19,513 nt of DNA from Acaryochloris thomasi RCC1774 (GCF_003231495.1 NZ_PQWO01000043.1:1-19513), one strand, 5' to 3'; numbered from the stretch's first letter, positions 4,410-19,271 are shown. Notes: generated by a model from the letters alone, not told the origin. Program-made: numbers and translations.

Positions 4410-5120
4410 TTAAGCTGCGGGCAAGTCAAACAACAAAAACTCTGCAGGTTGATCGGTGCCTTTAACGATGATTTCCGGGGTGAAATCTGTGATTGCTGCA
4501 CCATCTCCGTTCATTAACGAATGGTCGTCTAACTGTACGCTTCCTCGAGCAATCTGTAGCCAGACGGCCCGACCGGGTTCAATGATGTGTTTAACCTGCT
4601 GTTCCTCGGTCAGTAAGCCTGCGTAGAGATTCACGTCTTGATGAATCGTCACTGAGCCGTGCCGCCCATCCCTTGATCCCACGAGGCGGAGTTGTCCTTG
4701 CCTTTCTGCTGGGGAGATATAGATTTGCTCGTAGCTCGGCTCAATTCCTTGAGTATCGGGCATTAGCCAGATTTGTAAAAAGTGAACGCCCTCAGATTGG
4801 GACGGATTGTATTCACTATGGGAAATTCCGGTCCCGGCAGACATGCGCTGGATATCTCCGGGCCTGATGATCGAGCCGTTGCCGATGTTGTCTTTATGCT
4901 CTAAGGCACCGTTCAGCACGTAGGAAATAATTTCCATGTCGCGGTGGCTGTGGGTCGAAAAGCCTTGAGCCGGATGTACTTTATCTTCGTTGATCACCCG
5001 TAGGGCTGAAAAACCCATGTGGGCCGGGTCAAAATAGTTGCCGAAGGAAAAGGTATGACGGCTATCAAGCCACCCAAAGTTGGCACTGCCTCTCTCGTTG
5101 CCAGGGCGAATGGTAATCAT
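4410..5120 (-). CDS. Pirin-family bicupin protein (YhhW/quercetinase-like)
   Basis: The product starts MITIRPGNERGSANFGWLDSRHTFSFGNYFDP...THSHRDMEIISYVLNGALEHKD..G, a typical pirin N-terminal cupin. I prefer the ATG at 5120, which is preceded by GGAGG, over the longer track ORF that starts at 5174. Confidence 0.85.
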   Translation of the reverse strand: MITIRPGNERGSANFGWLDSRHTFSFGNYFDPAHMGFSALRVINEDKVHPAQGFSTHSHRDMEIISYVLNGALEHKDNIGNGSIIRPGDIQRMSAGTGISHSEYNPSQSEGVHFLQIWLMPDTQGIEPSYEQIYISPAERQGQLRLVGSRDGRHGSVTIHQDVNLYAGLLTEEQQVKHIIEPGRAVWLQIARGSVQLDDHSLMNGDGAAITDFTPEIIVKGTDQPAEFLLFDLPAA

Positions 5121-5185
5121 GGTGTGTAGCCTCCTTATCGCCAGTTGTGTCTTTCGTTTCGGCGATAGATCCATGATAGTTTGAA

Positions 5186-5244
5186 TCTAAAAATAAGACA
5201 ATATACTAAACTATGGACACTCTGTGTCTAAAAATAAGACAATA
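5186..5244. promoter_or_regulatory. Two perfect copies of the 18-mer TCTAAAAATAAGACAATA in the pirin/LysR divergent control region
   Basis: The copies lie at 5186-5203 and 5227-5244, 41 bp apart start to start. Nearby are a TAG-N7-CTA element (5177-5189, T-N11-A type) and a 7-bp inverted repeat, ATAGTTT (5176-5182) / AAACTAT (5208-5214). Confidence 0.5.
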
Positions 5245-6147
5245 GCTGTGGATAAATTTGAAAGTATGCAGGCCTTTACGCAGGTTGTGGAGGCGGGTGG
5301 TTTTGCGGCGGCGGCTAGAGAGGTGGGACTGTCGCGATCGCAAGTGAATAAGCTTGTTGCTAACCTCGAAGTCCATCTGGGTGTTCAGCTACTCCATCGC
5401 ACCACTCGCAAGGTGACGCCTACGGATGCGGGGCGAGCCTATTATGAGCGCTGCATTAATATCCTGGCTGAGCTGGAAGAGGCGGAAACCTCAATTGCCC
5501 GACTGCAGACTGAGGCGAGGGGCACCTTGCGGATTAATGCACCGATGTCCTTTGGTATGAGGCATTTGGGGCGTGCGATCGCAGCTTTTAGTCATCAGCA
5601 TCCACAGCTTCAGGTCGAAGTTACCTTGAGCGATCGCTTCATTGATCCGATTTCAGAAGGCTTTGACGTCACACTCCGAATCTCAGAATATCCCGACGAC
5701 GCCAGTTTAATTTCGCACCTTGTGATGCCAACCCCGAGAGTCCTCTGTGCTGCTCCTCAGTATCTGGCGGAGCGCGGCAATCCCGGTCAACCTAAGCAGC
5801 TTCGAGAGCATTCCTGTCTTCATTACGGACACTTGCCCAGCGCTCATCGTTGGTTTTTACAGGGGCCGGAGGGTGAGGTCGTGGTGTCGATTTCTGGGGC
5901 GCTATGCTCTAACAACGGAGAGGTCCTTCGCAGCGCGGCACTGGAGGGGCTTGGGATTACGCTGTTGCCCACCTTTATCGTGGCGAACGATCTGCAGCAG
6001 GGAGATCTTCGGGTTGTCCTGCCGGAGTATCGTGCCCCTACTCTTTCTTTATACGTTGTATATCCAGTAAATCGGCATCTGTCAGAAAAGGTGAGGTTGC
6101 TTACAGCGTTTATTTGCGATCGCTTTGATACTCATAAGATAAATTGA
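5224..6147 (+). CDS. LysR-family transcriptional regulator, divergent from the pirin gene
   Basis: The N-terminal wHTH reads DKFESMQAFTQVVEAGGFAAAAREVGLSRSQVNKLVANLEVHLGVQLLHRTTRKVTPTDAG, followed by a LysR substrate-binding domain. The track start is the GTG at 5224. The GTG at 5248 (giving MDKFESMQAF) or the ATG at 5266 is more likely, because the second 18-mer repeat lies at 5227-5244. Confidence 0.85.
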   Translation: MSKNKTIAVDKFESMQAFTQVVEAGGFAAAAREVGLSRSQVNKLVANLEVHLGVQLLHRTTRKVTPTDAGRAYYERCINILAELEEAETSIARLQTEARGTLRINAPMSFGMRHLGRAIAAFSHQHPQLQVEVTLSDRFIDPISEGFDVTLRISEYPDDASLISHLVMPTPRVLCAAPQYLAERGNPGQPKQLREHSCLHYGHLPSAHRWFLQGPEGEVVVSISGALCSNNGEVLRSAALEGLGITLLPTFIVANDLQQGDLRVVLPEYRAPTLSLYVVYPVNRHLSEKVRLLTAFICDRFDTHKIN

Positions 6148-8575: not shown

Positions 8576-10417
8576 TCAAAGATCTTCCAGCAGTAACAAT
8601 CGCGACGGATCTAAGCACACGCTCCAGGGCTGAGGCTGATCTTTAAGCTCACACCATTTTTCTTTAAACACTTCTGCCTGTAGATGATAGTCTTGCTCAT
8701 CGCTTGGGGGGCGATGCAGCTTTAAATACAGGGTCATGCGATGGGGCGTTTCACTGGTCGCCGCTAGCCAGCAGCAAAAGGTATTTTTAGACGAGGCCGA
8801 CGAGGCCGACAATGAAATCTGGTGGGCACGGATGCCAATTTGGGTGAAGTTTGGGGGAAGTGGTTCTAGGGTTTGCAGCTGGCACTGCCAGCGCTGGACC
8901 TCAACTTGGTTCGGGCCGTAGGCGACAGCGGGTGAAAAGTTTTTACAGCCGGTCAGTCGAGCAACACTGACGGTCTGAGGCTGCTCAAAAATACGGTGTT
9001 TGGGACCATTGGCAATGACGGTACCGCTATCCAGGATTAGGAGGTCGTGACACATGCGGTAGGCTTCTTCTAAGTTGTGGGTTACCAATAGGGTAATGCC
9101 CTGGTAGCTCTGGAGTCGGGTGATCAGCTGCCGCTCAATCTGGTTGCGGAGATGCGTGTCAAGAGCGGAAAAGGGTTCGTCTAACAGTAAGACTTCAGGT
9201 TGGCTGGCAAGTGCTCGCGCCAATGCAACTCGCTGCTGCTGTCCCCCCGAGAGTTGACGGGGATAATGTTGAGCGAATGGCTCAAGACGCATGGCAATTA
9301 ACTGCTGAGTCACAGCCCTTGTGATCTGGTTCGGAGACGATTTCTGGCATCGAGGGAGGCCAAAGGCAATGTTTTGAGCAACGGTTAAGTGGGGAAAGAG
9401 GGCATAGTTCTGGAAGAGAATGCTGACGTTGCGATCGCAACTCCCCACATCAATCCCCAACTCAGAATCAAACAGCACTCGATCGTTAAGGATAATCCGG
9501 CCCGAGTCTGGGGTCTCTATCCCTGCAATGCAGCGCAGAATTAAACTCTTGCCCACCCCAGAGGCTCCTAAAACTCCGAGGGGCTGGCCATCCGCAACAA
9601 ATTTGATAGATAGAGTAAACTCCGGCAGATGTTTGCAAATATCCACCTCTAGCTGAAGACGAGTGGACCGTTTGGCCCCCGCTTCTTCGAACCCGCCTCT
9701 GCTCCTGTCAGAAAGGAGCATGGCCTCGGTTTTTCTCCCTTTAGATCTCTGTGTCCATCGAAGCCGAGACCGGTGCTGGGTTAACCCATTTGTGAGGACA
9801 ATCCCCCCGAGCGACAAGCTGAGCACTATCGCTGACCAGAGGGCAGCTTCGCGCAGATCGCCGCCTTCGACCGCGAAATAGATCGCCATCGGTAACGTTT
9901 GAGTGCGTCCGGGGATGTTCCCTGCCAACATCAGGGTTGCCCCAAATTCACCTAAGGCTCGAGCAAAGGCCAAGGTGGTTCCAGCTAAGAGACCGGGTAG
10001 TGAGAGGGGCAGGGTAATGCGCCTGAAGACGTTAAGTTCCGTGGCCTTCAGAGTCCGGGCCGCCTGCTGTAAGCTATCGTCAATCTGCTCAAATGCCCCC
10101 AGAGTCGTTTTGTACATCAGCGGGAAAGCTACTACCGTGGCTGTGATAACAGCGGCATACCAAGTAAAGACCACGCTAATCCCACCTGAGAACAGGACTC
10201 TGAACGGCCCATTTTTGCCGAGCAGCAGCAGTAAGAGAAAGCCCAGGACCGTCGGCGGGAGAACCATCGGGGCAAGAAAAAGACTATCTAATAGCGATCG
10301 CCAACGGCCTCGATAGTGCTGCATAAAATGGGCGGCAGCAATCCCCAAAAAGAACGTTACGACAGTGGCAATTGTCGCAATTCGGAGAGAAATCCAAAGG
10401 GGGGAAAGATTAATCAT
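8576..10417 (-). CDS. modBC: Fused molybdate ABC transporter permease and ATPase (ModB-ModC) with a C-terminal TOBE-like domain
   Basis: The 613-aa product begins with a multi-TM ModB/CysTW-type permease that includes the EAA-like loop ARALGEFGATLMLAGN. The C-terminal half is an ABC ATPase with Walker A GASGVGKS, signature LSGGQQQRVALARAL and Walker B LLLLDEPFSALD. A tail of about 130 aa follows. The gene sits 18 bp downstream of modA. Confidence 0.85.
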   Translation of the reverse strand: MINLSPLWISLRIATIATVVTFFLGIAAAHFMQHYRGRWRSLLDSLFLAPMVLPPTVLGFLLLLLLGKNGPFRVLFSGGISVVFTWYAAVITATVVAFPLMYKTTLGAFEQIDDSLQQAARTLKATELNVFRRITLPLSLPGLLAGTTLAFARALGEFGATLMLAGNIPGRTQTLPMAIYFAVEGGDLREAALWSAIVLSLSLGGIVLTNGLTQHRSRLRWTQRSKGRKTEAMLLSDRSRGGFEEAGAKRSTRLQLEVDICKHLPEFTLSIKFVADGQPLGVLGASGVGKSLILRCIAGIETPDSGRIILNDRVLFDSELGIDVGSCDRNVSILFQNYALFPHLTVAQNIAFGLPRCQKSSPNQITRAVTQQLIAMRLEPFAQHYPRQLSGGQQQRVALARALASQPEVLLLDEPFSALDTHLRNQIERQLITRLQSYQGITLLVTHNLEEAYRMCHDLLILDSGTVIANGPKHRIFEQPQTVSVARLTGCKNFSPAVAYGPNQVEVQRWQCQLQTLEPLPPNFTQIGIRAHQISLSASSASSKNTFCCWLAATSETPHRMTLYLKLHRPPSDEQDYHLQAEVFKEKWCELKDQPQPWSVCLDPSRLLLLEDL

Positions 10418-10435
10418 GGCAGCAAAGGGGCTGAC

Positions 10436-11233
10436 CTAAGCACGGCCAAATCCAAATTCTTCGAAGGTTTGTTGAGCGGCATCCGTGATCAGAAAATTAA
10501 TGAAGGCTTGAGCCGCTTCTGAGTGAGCGGTGCTTTGGATCATCGCAACTGGATATACGATCGGTAGATGAGAGTCTTCAGGGACCGTTGTCAGCACCTT
10601 TACCTGCTGAGAAAGAGCTGCATCAGTCGCATACACCATACCCAGTTCAGCATTACCGTTTTCCACGGCGGCGAGGACATTGCGAACAGTGTTGCCGAAG
10701 ACAAATTTAGTTCGTAGGGGGTCTAGCAGGTCCAATTTTGTGAACACTTGCTGGGCATATTGTCCGGCGGGGACGCTGCGAAATTCACCGACGGCGAAGC
10801 GACTGATATCAATGTCTCTGAGCTGAGTCAGGTCCGTGATCTCGTAATTAGAGTTTGTGGGAGCAATCAGTACCAGACTGTTGGTTACTAAATTTCGTTG
10901 ACTGTCGGGTTGAACAATCCCTTTCTCTGACAGTGCATTCATTTGTTTTGTAGCAGCGGAGCAAAAAACGTCGGCCGGTGCGCCCTGCTCGATTTGCCGC
11001 TGGAGCGCACCGGAAGCACCAAAATTATAGTCAATTGCAATGGTGGGATGGGCGGTATTGAACTGAGTTGCGATCCCATCAAGTGCCTCTTGCAAACTCG
11101 CAGCAGCAGACACTGTGATCGTCACGGAGGTCGTCTGTTCGGTAGAGGTCAGAGAACTGGAGCTGCAGCTCACCAGTAAACAAGCGAGCAAACCTGCCAT
11201 GAACCAGGCAGAAAATTGGCAGCGTTGCATCAT
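10436..11233 (-). CDS. modA: Molybdate-binding periplasmic protein ModA (lipoprotein)
   Basis: 265 aa. The signal peptide carries the lipobox LLVSC. ModA-type motifs include TVSAAASL, NFGASGALQRQIEQGAPADVF.SA and FAVGEFRSVPAGQYA. It lies directly upstream of modBC. Confidence 0.85.
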   Translation of the reverse strand: MMQRCQFSAWFMAGLLACLLVSCSSSSLTSTEQTTSVTITVSAAASLQEALDGIATQFNTAHPTIAIDYNFGASGALQRQIEQGAPADVFCSAATKQMNALSEKGIVQPDSQRNLVTNSLVLIAPTNSNYEITDLTQLRDIDISRFAVGEFRSVPAGQYAQQVFTKLDLLDPLRTKFVFGNTVRNVLAAVENGNAELGMVYATDAALSQQVKVLTTVPEDSHLPIVYPVAMIQSTAHSEAAQAFINFLITDAAQQTFEEFGFGRA

Positions 11234-11390
11234 TGGTGTTCACGGGTAGAGTGCTCTCAAAGGTTCGAGTGAGGAAGCCGCTAGGCTTTGGCCTGAGCTT
11301 TATCCCTAGGATAGAGGCCCCACTGATGGGCCAGCCGATTTTGTTGCCCAATCAGTGAGGGTACGAGAAAGGTAGGATTCCCCTAATTTT

Positions 11391-11606
11391 TTATACACCT
11401 ACCCCAAAGATCTCAGAAATGAAGTGATTCTGAGCGCGAATGTCTCCTTTCTCAACACCGATGCCCTGTCCTTTACGGATGGCATTCATCGACTCATAGC
11501 CTCGGCTCGTTTGCTTGGCACTCCAGAATTTCTGAAATCCTAAGCCCGTACGTATTCCGCGACGCCTGCTGGCAGATCTGACAGATTCTGAACGACTGTT
11601 AAGCAA
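11391..11606 (-). pseudogene. C-terminal fragment of an IS6/IS26-like DDE transposase
   Basis: GLGFQKFWSAKQTSRGYESMNAIRKGQGIGVEKGDIRAQNHFISEIFGV matches the IS6-family tail (..MLGFKSF....L.G.E..HMIRKGQ..). No upstream catalytic portion is present, and AT-rich non-coding sequence follows. Confidence 0.6.
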
Positions 11607-11645
11607 ATCTAATTAATGATAGCTAAGACTTATATGTTTCCTTGG

Positions 11646-11674
11646 TTGATATTTGTTCTAATTATATTTATATT
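11646..11674 (+). promoter_or_regulatory. Candidate sigma70-type promoter: TTGATA-N17-TATATT
   Basis: The -35 element TTGATA lies at 11646-11651 and the -10 element TATATT at 11669-11674, with a 17-nt spacer. It sits about 40 nt upstream of the CP12-like start codon in an AT-rich region. No experimental support. Confidence 0.35.
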
Positions 11675-11715
11675 GGACTCATGTCACCTCTGAAAAACAA
11701 CTTGGAGCGAAAATC

Positions 11716-12018
11716 ATGACTCATGCGATTACATCCCCTAAAGCAGCATCACTCTACGCACTTATTCCTATTGCTGATTCACAAGCCCGATGCAAACCTG
11801 ATTCTGCTCTTGAAACAACCTTTGCCGCAGCGCTCGAACCTGCTCGTCGTCTGACAGATATGTATGGCACTCAAAATATTGAGGTAACGGTTGCTTGGGA
11901 AGTGATTGGGGAGTTGGGGAGAGCCATCACTCGTCAACGGCTCTCGGTACAGACTGCATTTGACCGCTACTGTGCCGCGAATCCAGATGCACCCGAAGCT
12001 CGGATATATGACGTTTAA
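11716..12018 (+). CDS. CP12-domain protein, a variant lacking both regulatory cysteine pairs
   Basis: The C-terminal half reads VAWEVIGEL....FDRYCAANPDAPEARIYDV. This parallels the CP12 core AWD.VEEL and the C-terminal YC..NP.A.EC(R)(I/V)Y(E/D)D. The second Cys of the C-terminal pair is replaced by Ala, and the about 50-aa N-terminal extension has only one Cys. Confidence 0.6.
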   Translation: MTHAITSPKAASLYALIPIADSQARCKPDSALETTFAAALEPARRLTDMYGTQNIEVTVAWEVIGELGRAITRQRLSVQTAFDRYCAANPDAPEARIYDV

Positions 12019-12057
12019 GGTTCTTTGGAAAGGACATTAGATTCGTAAGGTCACTCC

Positions 12058-12813
12058 ATGTTCGCTAATCTTTCAATTCCGATGAATGCTACAGCTCAGG
12101 GCGTCGATCAGTTCGTCAGTAAAGTTATGACGGGCGCGATCGCAGCGCTGCTAAAGCGAACAGAAAAGCTAGACGTTAGGGTCAGAGCAGAACCTGTTGC
12201 AAAGCTGTTTCACGGCAGTATTGATGGGTTTGATTTTATTGGTCAGGGTCTATTGATGCATAGCGGTCTCCAAGTAGACCGCATGGAGTTTTACCTGCAG
12301 GCACTCTCCATTGACTTTGGCGCTCTCTTGCGGGGACAAGTCCAACTTCGGCAATCAACCCAGTCTTCTATGCGGGTTGTATTGACAGAAGAGGATTTGA
12401 CAGCCGCCTTCAACGCATCTTTTCTCACGGAAAAACTGCAGCAGCTTTCCTATGGCGGACAGCCGCTTTTGTTCGAGAAAACACGAATTAGTATCAACGA
12501 AGATCAGTTCCTGCGGATGCAAAGCTGGGTCTACTTCGGTCAGGTCGAACAAATGCTGGAAATCGACATCACGGCTCGTCTGGATTTTAAGGGCCGGCGC
12601 AAGCTCCAGTTTGTAGAGGTGACCTACGGTGGCGATCAGAGGGCCATAGAGCTGGGTCAGATGTTGACTCGTCACGTCAATAATCTAATGGATTTAGACC
12701 AGTTTAGCTTTGATGGGATGAAGCGTCGCGTGGATTTACTGCGACTGAAAGATCAACAACTTACCCCCTATGGCGTTGCCTACATGGAAAAATTTCCACA
12801 GCAGCATGGTTAA
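12058..12813 (+). CDS. DUF2993 (LmeA-like) family protein
   Basis: 251-aa ORF. KLDVRVRAEPVAKLFHGSIDGFDFIGQGLLMHSGLQVDRMEFYLQALSIDFGALLRGQVQL...MRVVLTEEDLTAAFN follows the repeated pattern I associate with cyanobacterial DUF2993 proteins. It starts 39 bp after the CP12-like gene and ends 62 bp before flv4. Confidence 0.55.
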   Translation: MFANLSIPMNATAQGVDQFVSKVMTGAIAALLKRTEKLDVRVRAEPVAKLFHGSIDGFDFIGQGLLMHSGLQVDRMEFYLQALSIDFGALLRGQVQLRQSTQSSMRVVLTEEDLTAAFNASFLTEKLQQLSYGGQPLLFEKTRISINEDQFLRMQSWVYFGQVEQMLEIDITARLDFKGRRKLQFVEVTYGGDQRAIELGQMLTRHVNNLMDLDQFSFDGMKRRVDLLRLKDQQLTPYGVAYMEKFPQQHG

Positions 12814-12875
12814 TGTTCTGCTGTGACTCTGTTCACACCAGTTGAGAGGCTGATTCAACCAAGTATTAGGAGTAA

Positions 12876-14612
12876 ATGATGGCGACTCTATCTGCACCAG
12901 CAAGTGATAGACCACTCAATGGGCGACTGACGATTCAGTCCCAAGAAATTGGGGCAGAGACCCTGGCGCTGCGCTGCCTAGATTGGAATCGAGATCGCTT
13001 TGATATTGAGTTTGGTCTTGAGGATGGCACCACCTACAACTCATTCTTGATATATGGCGAAAAGACGGCCTTAATCGATACCAGCCACGCTAAATTTGGC
13101 CGTCTATATCTAGATGCGCTGGCCAAAAATATTGATTGGTTTGACCTGGACTACTTGATCGTGAGCCATACGGAGCCAGACCACAGTGGTCTTGTGAAGG
13201 AGGTGCTGGCCCTAGCGCCCAAGGTCACGGTGGTGGGTGCCAAGGTGGCGATTCAGTTTCTCGAAAATATGGTCCACCAGCCCTTCTATTCCCAAGTGGT
13301 GAAACAGGGAGATCGCATCGATTTGGGAAACGACCATGAATTGACCTTTGTCTCAGCCCCCAACCTACACTGGCCGGATACAATTTTGACCCACGACGCC
13401 AAAACGAACATCCTGTTCACTTGTGACGTCTTTGGGATGCACTATTGCAACGATCTGCTTTATGACGAAGAACCGGATCGTCTGGCACCTCATTTTCAGT
13501 ACTACTACGACTGCTTGATGCGTCCCAATTCCCGCTCAGTGTTGAGCGCCCTCAAGCGAACTGCGAATCTCAATGTCCAAACTATTGCCACAGGGCACGG
13601 TCCCCTTCTTGAGCAGCATATCCCGGACTGGATAGACCGTTATCGAGATTGGAGCGAACAGCAAGCTCAGCTCGATCAACTCGTGGTTGTGTTTTATGAA
13701 GACGGCTATGGTCACGGAGAAATATTGGCCCAAGGCATTGCCCAAGGCATCACCAAAACAGGAGTGGTGGTTGAATGTGTTGATCTCGAGACTGCAGACC
13801 CCCATGACCTGAGAGAACTCGTTCAAATGGCAGCTGGAATTGTATTGGGAATGCCGTCACAATCAAATCTAGCCACGGCCCACACTGCGTTGAGCAGCAT
13901 CCTGGCAGCGGTACACCGGAAACAGACCGTTGGCCTATTTGAGTCTGGTGGCGGTGAAGATGAACCCATTTATCCTCTCCGCAGTACCTTACAAGAAATG
14001 GGGCTGACCGAGGCTTTCTCGCCGATTTTAGTGAAGGATACTCCCGACCGAGATCTAATGCAGCATTGCGAGGAAGCAGGGATTGATTTAGGCCAGTGGC
14101 TCACGCGAGATCGAACCATTCAGGAGATCAAGGCTTTAGACACAGACTTAGAGCTTGCCCTCGGACGCCTCAGCGGTGGACTTTACATTCTGACGGCCCA
14201 AAAGGGAGAGGTGTCGAATGCGATGCTGGCTTCCTGGGTAACCCAGGCCAGCCTAGAGCCGTTAGGGGTGGCAGTAGCTGTTGCAAAAGATCGGGCCATT
14301 GAGTCATTGCTGCAGGTGGGCGATCGCTTTGTTCTGAATATTTTGGCGGAGGAGACGGCTCAGCACCTGATGCGACATTTCCTGAAGCGCTTTCCTCCAG
14401 GAGGCGATCGGTTTGCCGGAGTCAAGGTCTATGCCTCAAGTCACGGGGCCTCTATTTTGGCAGAGGCACTCGCGTATTTGGAATGTCAGGTGACCAGCCG
14501 TTTGGAGTGCAGCGATCACTGGGTCATCTACAGCACCGTTGAACAGGGCCGGGTCTCTAATTTAGATGGCTTGACCGCTGTTCGCCATCGTAAGGTCGGT
14601 AATCATTATTAA
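12876..14612 (+). CDS. flv4: Flavodiiron protein Flv4 (FlvB-type: metallo-beta-lactamase-like, flavodoxin-like and flavin-reductase domains)
   Basis: 578 aa with the three-domain cyanobacterial Flv layout. The canonical diiron ligands are present: H-T-E-P-D-H (13167-13184), NLHWPD, CDVFGMH and GHGP. It is the first gene of the flv-small membrane gene-flv triad. AGGAG lies 3-6 nt before the tandem ATG ATG. Confidence 0.85.
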   Translation: MMATLSAPASDRPLNGRLTIQSQEIGAETLALRCLDWNRDRFDIEFGLEDGTTYNSFLIYGEKTALIDTSHAKFGRLYLDALAKNIDWFDLDYLIVSHTEPDHSGLVKEVLALAPKVTVVGAKVAIQFLENMVHQPFYSQVVKQGDRIDLGNDHELTFVSAPNLHWPDTILTHDAKTNILFTCDVFGMHYCNDLLYDEEPDRLAPHFQYYYDCLMRPNSRSVLSALKRTANLNVQTIATGHGPLLEQHIPDWIDRYRDWSEQQAQLDQLVVVFYEDGYGHGEILAQGIAQGITKTGVVVECVDLETADPHDLRELVQMAAGIVLGMPSQSNLATAHTALSSILAAVHRKQTVGLFESGGGEDEPIYPLRSTLQEMGLTEAFSPILVKDTPDRDLMQHCEEAGIDLGQWLTRDRTIQEIKALDTDLELALGRLSGGLYILTAQKGEVSNAMLASWVTQASLEPLGVAVAVAKDRAIESLLQVGDRFVLNILAEETAQHLMRHFLKRFPPGGDRFAGVKVYASSHGASILAEALAYLECQVTSRLECSDHWVIYSTVEQGRVSNLDGLTAVRHRKVGNHY

Positions 14613-14625
14613 GGAGTCAGGTTCC

Positions 14626-15162
14626 ATGAGCCTTCTAGACACGCCCATACTTAACAGAATTCGTTGGGTCAACCGCAGTAATATCGTCAGCTCCCTAGAA
14701 TTTGTTCAGGATCTGATTGTCATTTGCCTTTGTATTGGCCTGTTTGGCTTTATGGTGCTACAGCTTCGGGATATGTTCATGTCTTTGCTGCCACCGCTCG
14801 ATCTCCCCAATGTGACTGCAGACATTCTGTTCATCCTGATTTTAGTCGAGCTGTTTCGACTACTCATCATTTACCTGCGGGAGAGGCGTGTTTCCATCGG
14901 TGTGACGGTGGAAGTCTCCATTGTTTCGGCGCTCCGAGAAGTCATTGTAAACGGCATTCTAGAGATTCCCTGGCTGCAGGTCTTGATGACTTGCTTGTTT
15001 CTTGGCACCCTGGCACTCCTGCTGGTGGTGCGGGTCTGGCTGCCCCCTACCTTTGAGGGCATTAACCCCGAAGAACAACTCTCTCAACGCCGTCGCAGCG
15101 AACTACAAAATGACTCGCAGCAAAAGCATTCAATCCCCAATGGATATAGCGCTGAAAATTGA
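14626..15162 (+). CDS. Sll0218-like small membrane protein (PsiE-like family)
   Basis: 178 aa with about four hydrophobic helices. It sits between the two flv genes exactly as sll0218 does in the Synechocystis flv4-sll0218-flv2 operon. Its AAGGAG Shine-Dalgarno sequence overlaps the flv4 stop (TAAGGAG), and the gap is 13 bp. Confidence 0.75.
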   Translation: MSLLDTPILNRIRWVNRSNIVSSLEFVQDLIVICLCIGLFGFMVLQLRDMFMSLLPPLDLPNVTADILFILILVELFRLLIIYLRERRVSIGVTVEVSIVSALREVIVNGILEIPWLQVLMTCLFLGTLALLLVVRVWLPPTFEGINPEEQLSQRRRSELQNDSQQKHSIPNGYSAEN

Positions 15163-15210
15163 GATTGTATGTAGTTCAGCATCCATCCATCATTTGCAAA
15201 GAGACTCACC

Positions 15211-16950
15211 ATGATTTTCAGTCCACCCTCAGTAACCACTCGCCCCCGTGATGTCCAAGTTCAAGACATTGGTGCTCAAACCTTCGCGCTCAGGTCACGA
15301 ACCTGGGAACAGCTTAAGTTTGAGATAGAATATGCCCGCGAGAAAGGCACCACTGCCAATTCCTATCTGATTCGCGCCCAGAAAACAGCTCTAATTGACC
15401 CTCCCGGTGCTTCATTTACTGACATTTATCTGGAAGCTCTGGAAAACTGTATCCCGCTGCACCGGGTGGATTATGTGATTGTGCAGCACGTCAATCCCAA
15501 TCGGCTGGCAACCCTCAAAGTTCTACTAGCAAAAGCAACTCAGGCTCGAATTATTTGTACCAAGCCCGCTGCTCTTGCACTTGAACAAGCGATGGCAGAA
15601 TGGTCAGACCGGATTCAGGCGGTCCGGGATGGCGATACGCTGGCACTCGGCAAGGACCACGATCTCAAGTTTGCCTTTATCCCCACTCCCCGTTGGGCAG
15701 ATGGATTATGTACCTATGATGCCGGCACCCAAATTTTATACACCGATAAACTCTTTGGCGCGCATCTATGCGGAGATGAGCTTTGGGATATTCATTGGCA
15801 GTCTCTAGAAAGCGATCGCAAATATTATTTTGATTGTCTCCATGCCATGCAAGCCAAGCAGGTCGAAGCGACGGTGGCTAAACTGACTGACTATCCAGCT
15901 CGTATGTATGCACCAGGGCACGGTCCTCTGATTCGCTATAGTCTCAGCCGTTTGACGGCAATCTATACCGAATGGTGTCAGCAACAACAACAGCAGGATT
16001 TCAAGGTGATTCTGCTCTACGCTTCTGCCTATGGGAACACCGCCCGTGCTGCCGATGCGATCGCTCAAGGGTTAATTCAGTCGGGGATTCAGGTGCAGTC
16101 TATCAACTGCGAACACGCCGACCCAGTGGACTTGGCGACCTTGATTGAAGATAGTGACGGCATTATCATTGGTTCCCCCACCTTGGGTGGCCATGCCCCC
16201 ATCCAAATTCAAACCGCGCTCAGTACTGTATTAGCCACGGCAAGCTATCGGAAGCTAGTGGGCGTATTTGGCTCCTATGGCTGGAGTGGGGAGGCGATCG
16301 ATTTTATTGAGCGCAAGCTCAAGGACGCCAACTTCAGCTTTGGTTTTGAGACCTTACGGATTCGGTTCAGCCCTACGGAAGCAGTTCTGAAAGACTGTCA
16401 AGCAGCGGGTGTAACGTTTGCGACCGCCCTCCAGAAACATCGAAAGAAGCGGGTCTTTTCCAAGCCGCTGTTAGTGCAGAAGGTCGATCGCACCGCCCAG
16501 GCAATGGGGCGCGTGATTGGCTCCATCTGTGTCGTGACCTATCGGACGGCAACGGGACATCGCAGCATTTTAACCTCTTGGGTGTCTCAGGCGACTTTTA
16601 CGCCGCCCGGTATTATGCTTGCTATCGCATCCGAGCGGGGGCTAGATGATGTGCTTCAGCCGAATACTCCATTTGTGCTTAATTTGCTGCAACACGGACG
16701 TACTTTGCGGCAGCACTTTTTCAGAGATCGCGTGTCTAACCCCACGGTAATTCCTACGCTGAGTACGGAATGTACAGAGCAAGGTGGACTCGTGCTCACC
16801 GAGTCCGTCGCCTATTTAGAGTGTAGAACCCAGCAGCGCATGCTGTGCGGCGATCGCTGGTTAATTTATGCCACGGTAGAGCGGGGCAAGGTGTTAGATG
16901 CCTCTGGGAAAACCGCCATTCACTATCGGGTTTCAGGCCACGAAGAATAA
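15211..16950 (+). CDS. flv2: Flavodiiron protein Flv2 (FlvA-type with a non-canonical metal site)
   Basis: 579 aa with the same three-domain layout as the upstream paralog. The ligand motif is replaced by H-V-N-P-N-R (15487-15504), with PRWAD in place of LHWPD and DKLFGAH in place of CDVFGMH. This matches the described Flv1/Flv2 class. Confidence 0.85.
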   Translation: MIFSPPSVTTRPRDVQVQDIGAQTFALRSRTWEQLKFEIEYAREKGTTANSYLIRAQKTALIDPPGASFTDIYLEALENCIPLHRVDYVIVQHVNPNRLATLKVLLAKATQARIICTKPAALALEQAMAEWSDRIQAVRDGDTLALGKDHDLKFAFIPTPRWADGLCTYDAGTQILYTDKLFGAHLCGDELWDIHWQSLESDRKYYFDCLHAMQAKQVEATVAKLTDYPARMYAPGHGPLIRYSLSRLTAIYTEWCQQQQQQDFKVILLYASAYGNTARAADAIAQGLIQSGIQVQSINCEHADPVDLATLIEDSDGIIIGSPTLGGHAPIQIQTALSTVLATASYRKLVGVFGSYGWSGEAIDFIERKLKDANFSFGFETLRIRFSPTEAVLKDCQAAGVTFATALQKHRKKRVFSKPLLVQKVDRTAQAMGRVIGSICVVTYRTATGHRSILTSWVSQATFTPPGIMLAIASERGLDDVLQPNTPFVLNLLQHGRTLRQHFFRDRVSNPTVIPTLSTECTEQGGLVLTESVAYLECRTQQRMLCGDRWLIYATVERGKVLDASGKTAIHYRVSGHEE

Positions 16951-17274
16951 AATGGGTTAGAGTCTCTGAGAGCAAATGGTCGATAGTAATTGGCATCACA
17001 ATCGCACGGCAGTGTTAACCACCATGCATCGCAAGAAAGAAGTGATCGTTCCCCTCTTTGCCGCCAAGCTTTCGATCTCGGTTGAAGTCCCGCCCCAGTT
17101 TGACACCAATCGCTTTGGAACTTTGCCCGCGAAATCAATCTGTGAATTCCGTTAGGTCCGGCAGGTCAATTTTCCATCCTACGGCCTTGTTATTTCCACC
17201 CATTTCGAGAAACTACAACCCATCACTCGCTATGTAGGTCATCTAATAAGTGAATTGGTATCAGTGGCATTGAA

Positions 17275-18132
17275 TCAGTAATCTGCTGGTTCTGATGGCC
17301 CAGAAGTTTTATGCTCGCGTATGTGAGTTGAGCTGGTCCAACTCCCCTTGTCGTTGTAGTGATGGATCAAGCGTTGCCTTTCAGTGGGACTCACCAACCA
17401 CCCCGCTTCTACAAAGAAAGCCGCCTGGTCGCTATCCAATTTGAGAGGGATATTGCTGGAAGCTCCATCCGGGAGTAAAGTGACAACTCGGGTCATATTG
17501 TCTTCAAAACAGATTTGCTTGCCTTCAATTCTCCCCTTAGAGGTCAGGCTTTGTCCCTCAAATTCTAAGGTTTGGAGCAGTTGGTTCTCACCATGCCGAA
17601 CAACTTCTAGGCGGGTTGAATATTGAGTTGATTTTTGTAAGTCCGTGTACTCGGTATGGGCTTGGCCCTCCCAGACTCCAAGAAGTTGCTCAACCGTGAG
17701 GGGCGGTCGCTCATGGGCCGTGCTTCCAGCCCGAAACTCTCGAATAAGGGTCAGTCCTTGAAATTCCCCTTGCTCGTCATAAAGCTGCACTAAGCGCAGG
17801 CGGCGATCGCTTGTCACCAATCCATATTCTGCACCGAATGTGGAAAAAGGCGCTAACTGTATCGTGCCCTTAGAAAAGGCTCCCGTCTCAAAAACAAGGA
17901 TATACCGACCGAGGGTCCGATGTTCTTGCTGATAGTCTTTTGTCGGTGGGGTGTCATAGTCACCATCGCCAAATCGGCGTACGCGAAAGCGAAAGGCTTG
18001 ATTATTATCAAAGCTCTCCAGGTTGATAATTGAGTCTGTGGAGCTTAGCTGGTCTCCTTCGAGAGAGAACTGAGTAAATGATCCCCGCCACTCGCCAAGA
18101 TTTTTGAAGAAGTTCTCCCACTTTTTGCTCAT
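17275..18132 (-). CDS. DUF3598-family protein
   Basis: MSKKWENFFKNLGEWRGSFTQFSLEGD... matches the typical DUF3598 N-terminus (NLGEW.GSF). I prefer the ATG at 18132. The track ORF starts 14 codons upstream at 18174 and would overlap the dinB tail. Confidence 0.55.
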   Translation of the reverse strand: MSKKWENFFKNLGEWRGSFTQFSLEGDQLSSTDSIINLESFDNNQAFRFRVRRFGDGDYDTPPTKDYQQEHRTLGRYILVFETGAFSKGTIQLAPFSTFGAEYGLVTSDRRLRLVQLYDEQGEFQGLTLIREFRAGSTAHERPPLTVEQLLGVWEGQAHTEYTDLQKSTQYSTRLEVVRHGENQLLQTLEFEGQSLTSKGRIEGKQICFEDNMTRVVTLLPDGASSNIPLKLDSDQAAFFVEAGWLVSPTERQRLIHHYNDKGSWTSSTHIREHKTSGPSEPADY

Positions 18133-18167
18133 TGCGATTCTACTCTCTAGACAGCTTCTGTCTATTT

Positions 18168-19271
18168 CTACCATCGCCGCTGCACAGATAGCTCCGGCAA
18201 CCGTAAGTCTAGCGATAGCTGCATTGGCCCTGATTCCTGCCCACCCAAATTCGAGACCGTCAGCCCTAGTAGTCGCACTGGTTGATTCTCCTCAATGTTG
18301 CTCACCAGCAGCTCATGACCCATGTTCTTGATCAATCGATAACTATCGATGCAGTATTCCAAAGTCCGGGCGCGAGTACTCTGTTGATAGTCGTCAAACT
18401 TCACCTTCAGCGTCAACGTATGGCCCTTGCTTTCAGATTCCTCTAGCCGCTGATGGAGTATTCGTGCGATCTCATTCAAAGCCTCCATCATCTGCTTTTG
18501 ATCAGTGAGATCTTCAGCAAAGCTGCGTTCGGCCCCCATTGACTTGCGGACCCGGTTCGCAATGATAGGGCGATCGTCCCTGGCCCTGGCGATACTAAAA
18601 CAGTGGTGGCCGACCTTACCGAATTGCTCTACCAGAAATGCTTCAGAGCGGAGGCGTGGATCAGCACCAGTGTGCATACCCAGCTCATGCATTTTCCGGG
18701 CAGTCATCTTACCGATGCCGTGAAACTTTTCAATTGCTAGCTTTTGTACAAAGTCAGCCGCAGCCTCTGGCAGGATGACTGATAGGCCATCCGGTTTATC
18801 TAGATCGGAGGCCATTTTCGCTAGAAACTTATTGATCGAAACCCCTGCCGATGCCGTGAGCTGAGTCTCTTTGTGGATCGCCTGCTTGATTTTCTGTGCG
18901 ATCGCAGTGGTGGAGGGGATATCATGCTTGTTCTCTGTCACATCAAGATAGGCTTCATCAAGTGAGACGGGTTCCATTAGCTCGGTATAGCTTTTGAAGA
19001 TAGCTCGAATCTGCTGGGATGCCTCTCTATAGGCATCGAAGCGAGGGCGGACAAAGATCAGTTCGCTGCAGCACTGTGCCGCTGTCCGCGAGGGCATGGC
19101 CGAATGAATGCCGAACTTGCGGGCTTCGTCGCTGGCCGCGCCAACTGCGCCCCGTTACTCTGGATGGCCACCGACTACGACCGGCTTCCCTCGCAGCTCT
19201 GGGAAGTCTCGTTGTTAGATGGAGGCGTAGAAAGCATCCTGATCAATGTGGAGGATTTTGCGAACAGCCAT
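18168..19271 (-). pseudogene. dinB: DNA polymerase IV (dinB) interrupted by two in-frame TAA codons near the 5' end
   Basis: Reading from the ATG at 19271 gives [59 protein letters not shown]..., which runs in frame into the 309-aa ORF (SLDEAYLDVTE, HGIGK.., LLGLTVSNL). The stops are at 19215-19217 and 19155-19157. There is no frameshift across 368 codons. Confidence 0.8.

Follow-up and report, generated by a model that had tools for sequence, protein, structure and literature searches.

An apparent lineage-specific fusion of a CP12-like gene pair to the flv4-sll0218-flv2 genes of Acaryochloris thomasi RCC1774

A 19,513-nucleotide stretch of DNA from Acaryochloris thomasi RCC1774 (GCF_003231495.1, NZ_PQWO01000043.1:1-19513), hereafter called the window, raises the question of how a CP12-like gene (CP12L) and an LmeA-like gene of the DUF2993 family came to precede the flv4-2 operon genes (flv4-sll0218-flv2), and whether all five genes are transcribed together. 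Flv2/Flv4 serve as an O2-photoreduction sink and the flv4-2 operon is induced at low CO2 (PMC6658166). Sll0218, also named ColA, supports photosystem II (PSII) at low CO2 (PMC5742850). The locus is a variant form of the known flv4-2 operon and arose through a deletion confined to this lineage. Judged from sequence comparisons, the five genes are probably a derived transcription unit created by operon fusion.

Gene order and origin of the LmeA/flv4 junction

The five genes are located on the plus strand in the order CP12L (11716-12018, 100 aa), LmeA-like gene (12058-12813, 251 aa), flv4 (12876-14612, 578 aa), a homologue of sll0218/colA encoding a PsiE-family membrane protein (14626-15162, 178 aa) and flv2 (15211-16950, 579 aa). 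All open reading frames (ORFs) are intact and are separated by gaps of 39, 62, 13 and 48 bp, exactly as an initial annotation of the same DNA had listed them. A second ATG at 12879 is the one aligned with the flv4 start of related loci, and the second gap possibly measures 65 bp. The family assignments made in that annotation were all recovered with Pfam. CP12L matches PF02672 (E 5e-15, 56.4 bits against a gathering cut-off of 22.7) and the LmeA-like protein matches PF11209 (E 4e-30, profile positions 2-213 of 217). Flv4 and Flv2 each contain ODP/Lactamase_B and Flavin_Reduct domains, the latter C-terminal in Flv4. Flv2 also has a flavodoxin domain, and the Flavodoxin_1 match in Flv4 is weak (E 0.009), its gene being named by operon position. 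The sll0218 homologue (PF06146) lies between both flv genes on the same strand. NCBIfam holds no specific model for CP12L or the LmeA-like gene. Searches of the literature turned up no account of a linkage between CP12 and flv4-2, in line with the annotation's view of it as undescribed, with a mention in an earlier classification of CP12 variants being possible.

The flv4-2 operon of Synechocystis sp. PCC 6803 has its three genes arranged as in the window, with identical order and strand, and in both cases flavodiiron proteins with flavin-reductase domains flank the PsiE-family membrane protein. Flv4 is 88-89% identical to Flv4 of loci L082 and L092, and Flv2 is 87% identical to Flv2 of L082. 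The difference lies upstream. In Synechocystis, flv4 has its own mapped transcription start site (TSS) and a divergent ctpB neighbour (PMC3460422), whereas in the window the native upstream region is deleted and flv4 is preceded by two extra genes and a different conserved promoter. A promoter/regulatory region of its own directly upstream of flv4, as expected for an flv4-2 operon, is missing here.

Gene order across cyanobacteria was surveyed in 80 loci from different species, anchored on the Sll0218-like protein, which has 2882 homologues, the best named ones belonging to Thermosynechococcaceae and Acaryochloris. The combination flv4-sll0218 was found in 47 loci (42 of them also with flv2), 28 have sll0218 without an flv gene within 10 kb and five are rearranged. 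The LmeA-like protein gave no match in any of these 80 loci, even at E 0.01. CP12L matches were limited to L025, L062 and L079, plus a weak one in L005, and none is upstream of flv4. The nearest relatives by Sll0218 identity (L082, 88%; L083, 84%; L001, 83%; L084, 77%) keep flv4-sll0218-flv2, with unrelated or divergent upstream neighbours and no CP12 or DUF2993 gene directly upstream. The initial annotation had named absence of this gene order from related genomes as evidence against its reading, and this absence was observed, the pair being missing directly upstream of flv4 in about 50 canonical loci as well as in L001, L082, L083 and L084. The order CP12L-LmeA-flv4-sll0218-flv2 is not conserved and evidently represents a lineage-specific fusion caused by deletion.

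The closest relative indicates what was deleted. The best named homologue of the LmeA-like protein (P0124, 73% identity) stems from a Thermosynechococcaceae metagenome-assembled genome. Its gene is located 21 bp downstream of a 91-aa CP12 gene, the product of which is 59% identical to CP12L. In this locus (L092), CP12L and LmeA are separated by 6.1 kb from flv4 (86-89% identical), which lies on the same strand and runs to the contig end. Three minus-strand genes fill the interval, encoding a CCG/4Fe-4S oxidoreductase, a phosphoketolase-like protein and an SBD_N/NBD_C kinase. The same kinase gene is found in L082, divergent and upstream of flv4. All three genes are absent from the window and the remaining order is that of L092; the window therefore corresponds to the L092 neighbourhood minus about 6.1 kb.

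The junction itself was delimited by alignments to L092, L082, L083 and L001. In these four loci, about 300 nt upstream of flv4 are conserved, with an ATAG-N8-CAAT/CTAT box and AATAAAnnATTGACATTTTACAA among the shared sequences. The window matches this region only from 12855 onwards, 21 nt before the ATG, and positions 12855-12875 form the 21-nt flv4 leader including an AGGAG ribosome-binding site. No copy of the conserved upstream motif was detected anywhere in the window. On the left side, homology to L092 extends through the end of LmeA and is weak for about 20 nt beyond. The 62-nt spacer (12814-12875), the putative fusion scar, is thus composed of about 20 weakly L092-like nucleotides, about 20 matching neither side and the 21-nt leader. 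The deletion junction has no repeat. By these alignments, a deletion of about 6.1 kb evidently joined CP12L-LmeA to flv4-sll0218-flv2, and the whole conserved flv4 promoter/regulatory region was lost. In the presumed ancestor, from a Thermosynechococcaceae/Acaryochloris-related lineage, the distance from CP12L-LmeA to the downstream flv4-sll0218-flv2, encoded on the same strand, would have been about 6 kb, with three opposite-strand genes between LmeA and flv4, a state that would survive in L092.

A short, independent contig from another sample (L081, 638-1058) has the same CP12L/LmeA junction. Here, LmeA codons 1-9 are fused in frame to flv4 at codon ~449, joined at the 6-nt microhomology GCTGGC. 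Its CP12L is frameshifted by a 4-nt deletion, which destroys the C-terminal RIYD motif, and L081 resembles a decayed version of this neighbourhood. The LmeA-flv4 fusion shows that LmeA and flv4 lay near each other on the same strand in another organism as well.

Incomplete flv4-2 clusters were also observed in other loci of the clade. In L002 (9046-10522), flv4 is internally deleted and flv2 is missing. On Acaryochloris plasmids (L085:9824-10531, L086 and L087), only the last 32 flv4 codons are left before an intact sll0218. The flv4 gene of L092 (16869-18553) shows a frameshift near codon 275, which is either an assembly error or indicates a pseudogene.

Transcription of the five genes and alternative explanations

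A sigma-70-type promoter, TTGATA-17-TATATT, is predicted upstream of CP12L at 11646-11674, with the -35 hexamer at 11646 and the -10 hexamer at 11669. It matches the consensus at 10 of 12 positions and is the best of five sites found in the consensus scan, a number that is not significant on its own (5.9 ± 2.5 sites in shuffled sequences). The promoter is nevertheless credible because about a dozen other loci show the same layout (TTGnnA, 17 nt, TAnnnT) in front of their CP12L homologues. The window, L092 and L081 can be aligned well over the 130 nt preceding CP12L, and all three have an identical -35 hexamer. This agrees with the initial annotation, which had named the site as the only near-consensus promoter. 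Its claim that the gaps lack terminators also held: no terminator-like match was found in any intergenic gap, with site counts equal to the shuffle expectation, and the gap RNAs fold no better than shuffled sequences (z +0.4, +1.3 and +1.6).

Since the native flv4 region is gone and no terminator follows LmeA, flv4-2 transcripts would most simply come from read-through that starts at the CP12L promoter. The idea of co-transcription, already put forward in the initial annotation, gains an argument from the missing conserved flv4 upstream region, of which only the leader of about 21 nt is left. The genes flv4, sll0218 and flv2 would most likely be transcribed by this read-through, on a pentacistronic mRNA from a predicted TSS near 11681.

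Several observations weigh against this reading and are best considered along with the alternatives that they favour. CP12L-LmeA and flv4-sll0218-flv2 could be separate units, flv4-2 being driven from a promoter, newly arisen or cryptic, that lies within the spacer or the 3' part of LmeA. A weak -10-like hexamer of the TAnnnT type (TAATGT, 12816-12821) overlaps the LmeA stop codon, from which an internal promoter near the end of LmeA may arise, and many cyanobacterial promoters work with a -10 box only, without a -35 hexamer. The Synechocystis operon, as mentioned, starts from its own TSS (PMC3460422). However, the consensus scan found no plus-strand promoter-like site between 11900 and 13800, and the upstream region conserved in the relatives is gone from the window. 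A terminator between LmeA and flv4 is lacking, so read-through would take place even with an internal promoter. We regard separate units as rather unlikely. The LmeA-like gene is also a point of caution: it is paired with CP12L in L088, L089 and L092 and was absent from all other CP12L or flv4-2 loci examined, such that its link to CP12L/flv4 is evidently specific to the lineage of the window.

The fusion could also be neutral or a recent accident, with flv4-2 poorly expressed or silent and heading for loss. Decay is common in the clade, which repeatedly loses flv4-2 (L002, L085-L087, L081 and the frameshifted L092), and the fused copy might in turn be falling silent. Against this stand the full-length flv4, sll0218 and flv2 genes, which are 87-88% identical to those of L082, the retained flv4 ribosome-binding site and the conserved regulated promoter upstream without a terminator in between. 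Compared with relatives, all five genes are under purifying selection, with ratios of non-synonymous to synonymous substitution rates (dN/dS) of 0.05 to 0.34 that span the whole divergence (dS about 0.6-1.1) and are no proof of selection after the deletion. The individual values are 0.34 for CP12L (versus L092), 0.14 for LmeA, 0.055 for flv4, 0.12 for sll0218 and 0.08 for flv2; the range of 0.05-0.12 for the three flv4-2 genes speaks against a silent cluster, which we consider improbable. An assembly artefact at the LmeA/flv4 junction is very improbable, even if the window is a single 19.5 kb contig that was seen once. In L092, the segments brought together here are neighbours on one strand at a distance of 6 kb, an arrangement that a random chimeric contig would not reproduce, no junction repeat is present that could mislead an assembler, and L081 from another sample also joins LmeA to flv4. 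Taken together, a derived five-gene unit read from the CP12L promoter is the explanation that we favour.

The CP12-like protein, its upstream element and a possible regulon

Aligned to CP12 of Thermosynechococcus (PDB 6GFO/6GVE), CP12L keeps the AW(D/E)xxEL core, which reads AWEVIGEL, and the motif FxxYCxxNPDAxExRIYD. Its C-terminal stretch matches 13 of 20 positions of the crystallised GAPDH-binding peptide. Thr and Val stand in place of the two N-terminal cysteines, and Ala in place of the second C-terminal one (YCAANPDAPEARIYDV), so that three of the four redox cysteines are gone. CP12L thus resembles canonical CP12 (Thermosynechococcus, PDB 6GVE), a redox-switched GAPDH/PRK scaffold, in having the full-length domain, the core and the C-terminal GAPDH-binding stretch. 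It differs in that neither disulfide can form, in a disordered N-terminal extension of about 30 residues and in a conserved promoter element of its own. When the initial annotation called this protein a homologue of a Calvin-cycle regulator, the CP12 domain was correctly recognised, whereas the regulatory role is unproven in view of the missing cysteines.

A word-indexed search with CP12L gave one relative, and tblastn, phmmer and an exhaustive search of representatives were used instead. The subfamily is rare. Of 1.84 billion representative clusters, 63 were matched at E ≤ 1e-3 and 11 at E ≤ 1e-10. Its members share a Pro/Thr/Ala-rich N-terminal extension and nearly all lack the N-terminal cysteine pair. 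The second C-terminal cysteine is lost, being replaced by Ala or Ser, in about half of the subfamily.

A conserved 39-nt element (GTTAAGCAAATCTAATTAATGATAGCTAAGACTTATATG) is located at 11598-11636 on the plus strand, as determined with a weight matrix and upstream alignments. The window has a single copy, which ends 10 nt before the -35 hexamer. Among CP12L homologues from distant lineages, the consensus is GTTAAGCAAAnCTAATnAAnCATAGATAAAACTTATATG, followed by a spacer of about 10 nt and the TTGnnA-17-TAnnnT promoter layout. The element was present in 17 of 17 CP12L loci with enough upstream sequence, 131-170 nt before the CP12 domain (97 nt in L093). In 1.64 Mb, scanned on both strands, the weight matrix (36.9 bits) matched only upstream of CP12L genes or, as a variant, of standalone sll0218 units. 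This variant, GTTAAGCAGnnnTTATnnnnCATAAAnnAAATTTATAT, was observed upstream of at least 19 such units, and in many of them it precedes a conserved ORF of about 107 aa (Mo-nitro_C, PF06967), which is followed by sll0218. The element was not found upstream of canonical flv4 genes (median best score of -8.8 bits, 47 loci). An Rfam scan of positions 11000-17400 yielded one sub-threshold match, judged to be due to chance, and the element corresponds to no known RNA family.

The element contains the dyads GTTAA-N6-CTAAT, also readable as TTA-N8-TAA, and ATAG-N7-TTAT. Published dyads of RbcR, NdhR and CmpR are ATTA(G/A)-N5-(C/T)TAAT, ATAG-N8-CTAT and TTA-N7/8-TAA, and the RbcR regulon probably includes flv4-2 (PMC13249358). 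From this similarity, the element looks like a putative binding region for a CbbR-type LysR regulator. The LysR gene of the window itself (5224-6147) was considered as the cognate regulator and rejected, as it is YafC/TtdR-like and paired with a pirin gene. Its product is only 22% identical to a CbbR-like LysR encoded beside sll0218 in Acaryochloris, which supports the rejection. The latter gene (L085:8142-9056, also in L086 and L087) is located on the Acaryochloris plasmids, divergent from and about 0.9 kb upstream of the sll0218 remnant cluster. It is a possible candidate for the cognate cluster regulator in the genus.

The genomic neighbourhood of CP12L was assessed in a metagenome scan anchored on CP12L, which is unbiased with respect to flv and sll0218. 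In four of eight independent loci with usable flanks, sll0218 or flv4-flv2 was found within about 5 kb. CP12L is directly upstream of sll0218 in L102 and L104, the latter also having a convergent bicA. In L105, flv4-flv2 lies upstream of CP12L, and in L098 sll0218 is about 4.5 kb away. The Sll0218-anchored loci add the orders flv4-flv2-CP12L-x-sbtA-sbtB-MoNitroC-sll0218 (L062), flv4-sll0218-flv2-x-CP12L-bicA (L079) and CP12L-sll0218 (L025). The bicA, sbtA and sbtB neighbours were confirmed by Pfam. Given an estimated expectation of about 1% per locus, and with related genomes counting as non-independent events, the association of CP12L with sll0218/flv4-flv2 is not a matter of chance. The link of CP12 and DUF2993 to flv4-2 proposed in the initial annotation therefore stands in part: CP12L recurs beside sll0218, flv4-flv2, bicA and sbtAB elsewhere, while the DUF2993 part applies to this lineage only.

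Standalone sll0218/colA genes are common, with 28 of the 80 species loci lacking flv4 or flv2 within 10 kb. They include L005, L011, L013, L014, L018, L020, L031, L042 and L052, with sll0218 near 10001 in most, and further L054, L055, L064, L067, L069, L072, L073, L076 and others. The typical unit consists of the element, the Mo-nitro_C ORF of about 107 aa (PLRQWLN...CPFER...PPLCKLNPLYEEV), sometimes a small membrane ORF (GWSVxIYxRxRRLL), and sll0218. Examples are L062:9477-10540, L072:9315-9965, L014:9082-9965 and L064:3057-3582. Synechococcus sp. PCC 7002 was called unique in having ColA alone, and its standalone ColA is induced 690-fold in air compared to high CO2 (PMC5742850). The middle gene of the window's flv4-2 cluster is homologous to this gene, and standalone sll0218 units elsewhere carry the element variant. 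In contrast to PCC 7002, sll0218 of the window is embedded between flv4 and flv2, and in contrast to the standalone units the element is located two genes further upstream.

Because the element variant precedes standalone sll0218 and CP12L adjoins flv4-flv2, sll0218, bicA and sbtAB, we propose that CP12L and Flv2/Flv4/Sll0218 probably already belonged to one low-inorganic-carbon regulon, and that the fusion would have kept a sensible regulation. CP12L could then be a redox-blind CP12 paralogue at the core of an undescribed low-inorganic-carbon regulon that is defined by the element of about 39 nt, a proposal that we make tentatively. Two findings count against it: CP12L lacks cysteines that are normally needed for stable GAPDH/PRK complexes, and the half-sites of the element, similar as they are, are spaced off by one compared to the published RbcR (N5) and NdhR (N8) consensus. 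Since the GAPDH-binding motif is kept but disulfides are impossible, CP12L may modulate GAPDH, and possibly PRK, by its abundance instead of a redox switch; this is the weakest step of the proposal. CP12L would damp the Calvin cycle while Flv2/Flv4 provide an alternative electron sink and Sll0218 stabilises PSII.

The LmeA-like protein, flanking genes and meaning of the locus

Homologues of the LmeA-like protein, with identities of 50-73%, form a DUF2993 family that is widespread in cyanobacteria. For the majority of DUF2993 proteins, secretion and anchoring through a transmembrane helix at the N-terminus have been described (PMC6791001). In contrast, residues 1-35 of the protein of the window include no long hydrophobic stretch and, by sequence, no evident signal peptide or transmembrane anchor. 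An AlphaFold2 model of moderate quality (mean pLDDT 69.7) has a low-confidence helix at residues 13-31. Neither sequence search nor Foldseek gave a significant PDB match, and the best Foldseek hits, Der p 7 and other lipid binders, are non-significant (E 0.045). The protein resembles mycobacterial LmeA/DUF2993, a Chorein-N plus TULIP lipid-transfer protein, in its full-length PF11209 match and in a predicted alpha/beta wrap that is weakly and non-significantly like lipid-binding folds. It differs from most DUF2993 proteins in that no N-terminal transmembrane segment was seen, and it has no sequence relative in the PDB. Its role is probably that of a lineage-specific partner that binds lipids and is either soluble or peripheral.

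Two or three close LmeA paralogues per genome are present in the clade, with identities of 66-73% to the protein of the window; those of A. thomasi are P0128, P0131 and P0141. In GCA_050330855.1 (L088/L092, L090/L091), only one of two paralogues is paired with CP12L. A 126-aa ORF upstream of the second paralogue (L090) was considered as CP12-like and rejected at 15% identity. In Prochlorothrix hollandica (L110:5001-6293), an LmeA orthologue is located between an ABC1 kinase gene and psb35, which encodes a PSII-associated small protein. This context is suggestive of a link between this DUF2993 clade and the thylakoid or PSII.

Further genes were noted on both sides of the cluster. Positions 4410-6147 contain the divergent pair of pirin (minus strand) and YafC/TtdR-like LysR (plus strand) genes, which is seemingly unrelated to the flv cluster. 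On the minus strand at 8576-11233, divergent from CP12L, lie a gene for a fused permease-ATPase of the ABC type (BPD_transp_1 plus ABC_tran, 613 aa) and a gene for a periplasmic binding protein (SBP_bac_11), read on first pass as a molybdate or sulfate-type importer. A BFA1-like gene (17275-18174, minus strand; DUF3598_N plus BFA1_C), a homologue of an ATP synthase biogenesis factor gene, is convergent with flv2, from which it is separated by 324 nt that show no clear terminator.

Together, L092 and the window form a natural before/after pair for a deletion-driven operon promoter swap, and the locus remains a clear example of an operon remodelled in one lineage, even should the regulon proposal be wrong. 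The lead given by the element of CP12L and sll0218 and by their neighbourhoods is more interesting than the fusion itself. Through a conserved and easily assayed element, a CP12 variant is linked to sll0218/colA, and gene neighbourhoods extend this link to flv4-flv2 and bicarbonate transporters. This leads to the hypothesis of an expression-driven CP12 control of carbon fixation that is co-regulated with an alternative electron sink at limiting CO2. If true, cyanobacteria would use the regulon to turn down GAPDH/PRK in step with deploying the Flv2/Flv4 sink, stabilising PSII and taking up bicarbonate, and the window would be its extreme case, with all of these genes on one mRNA.

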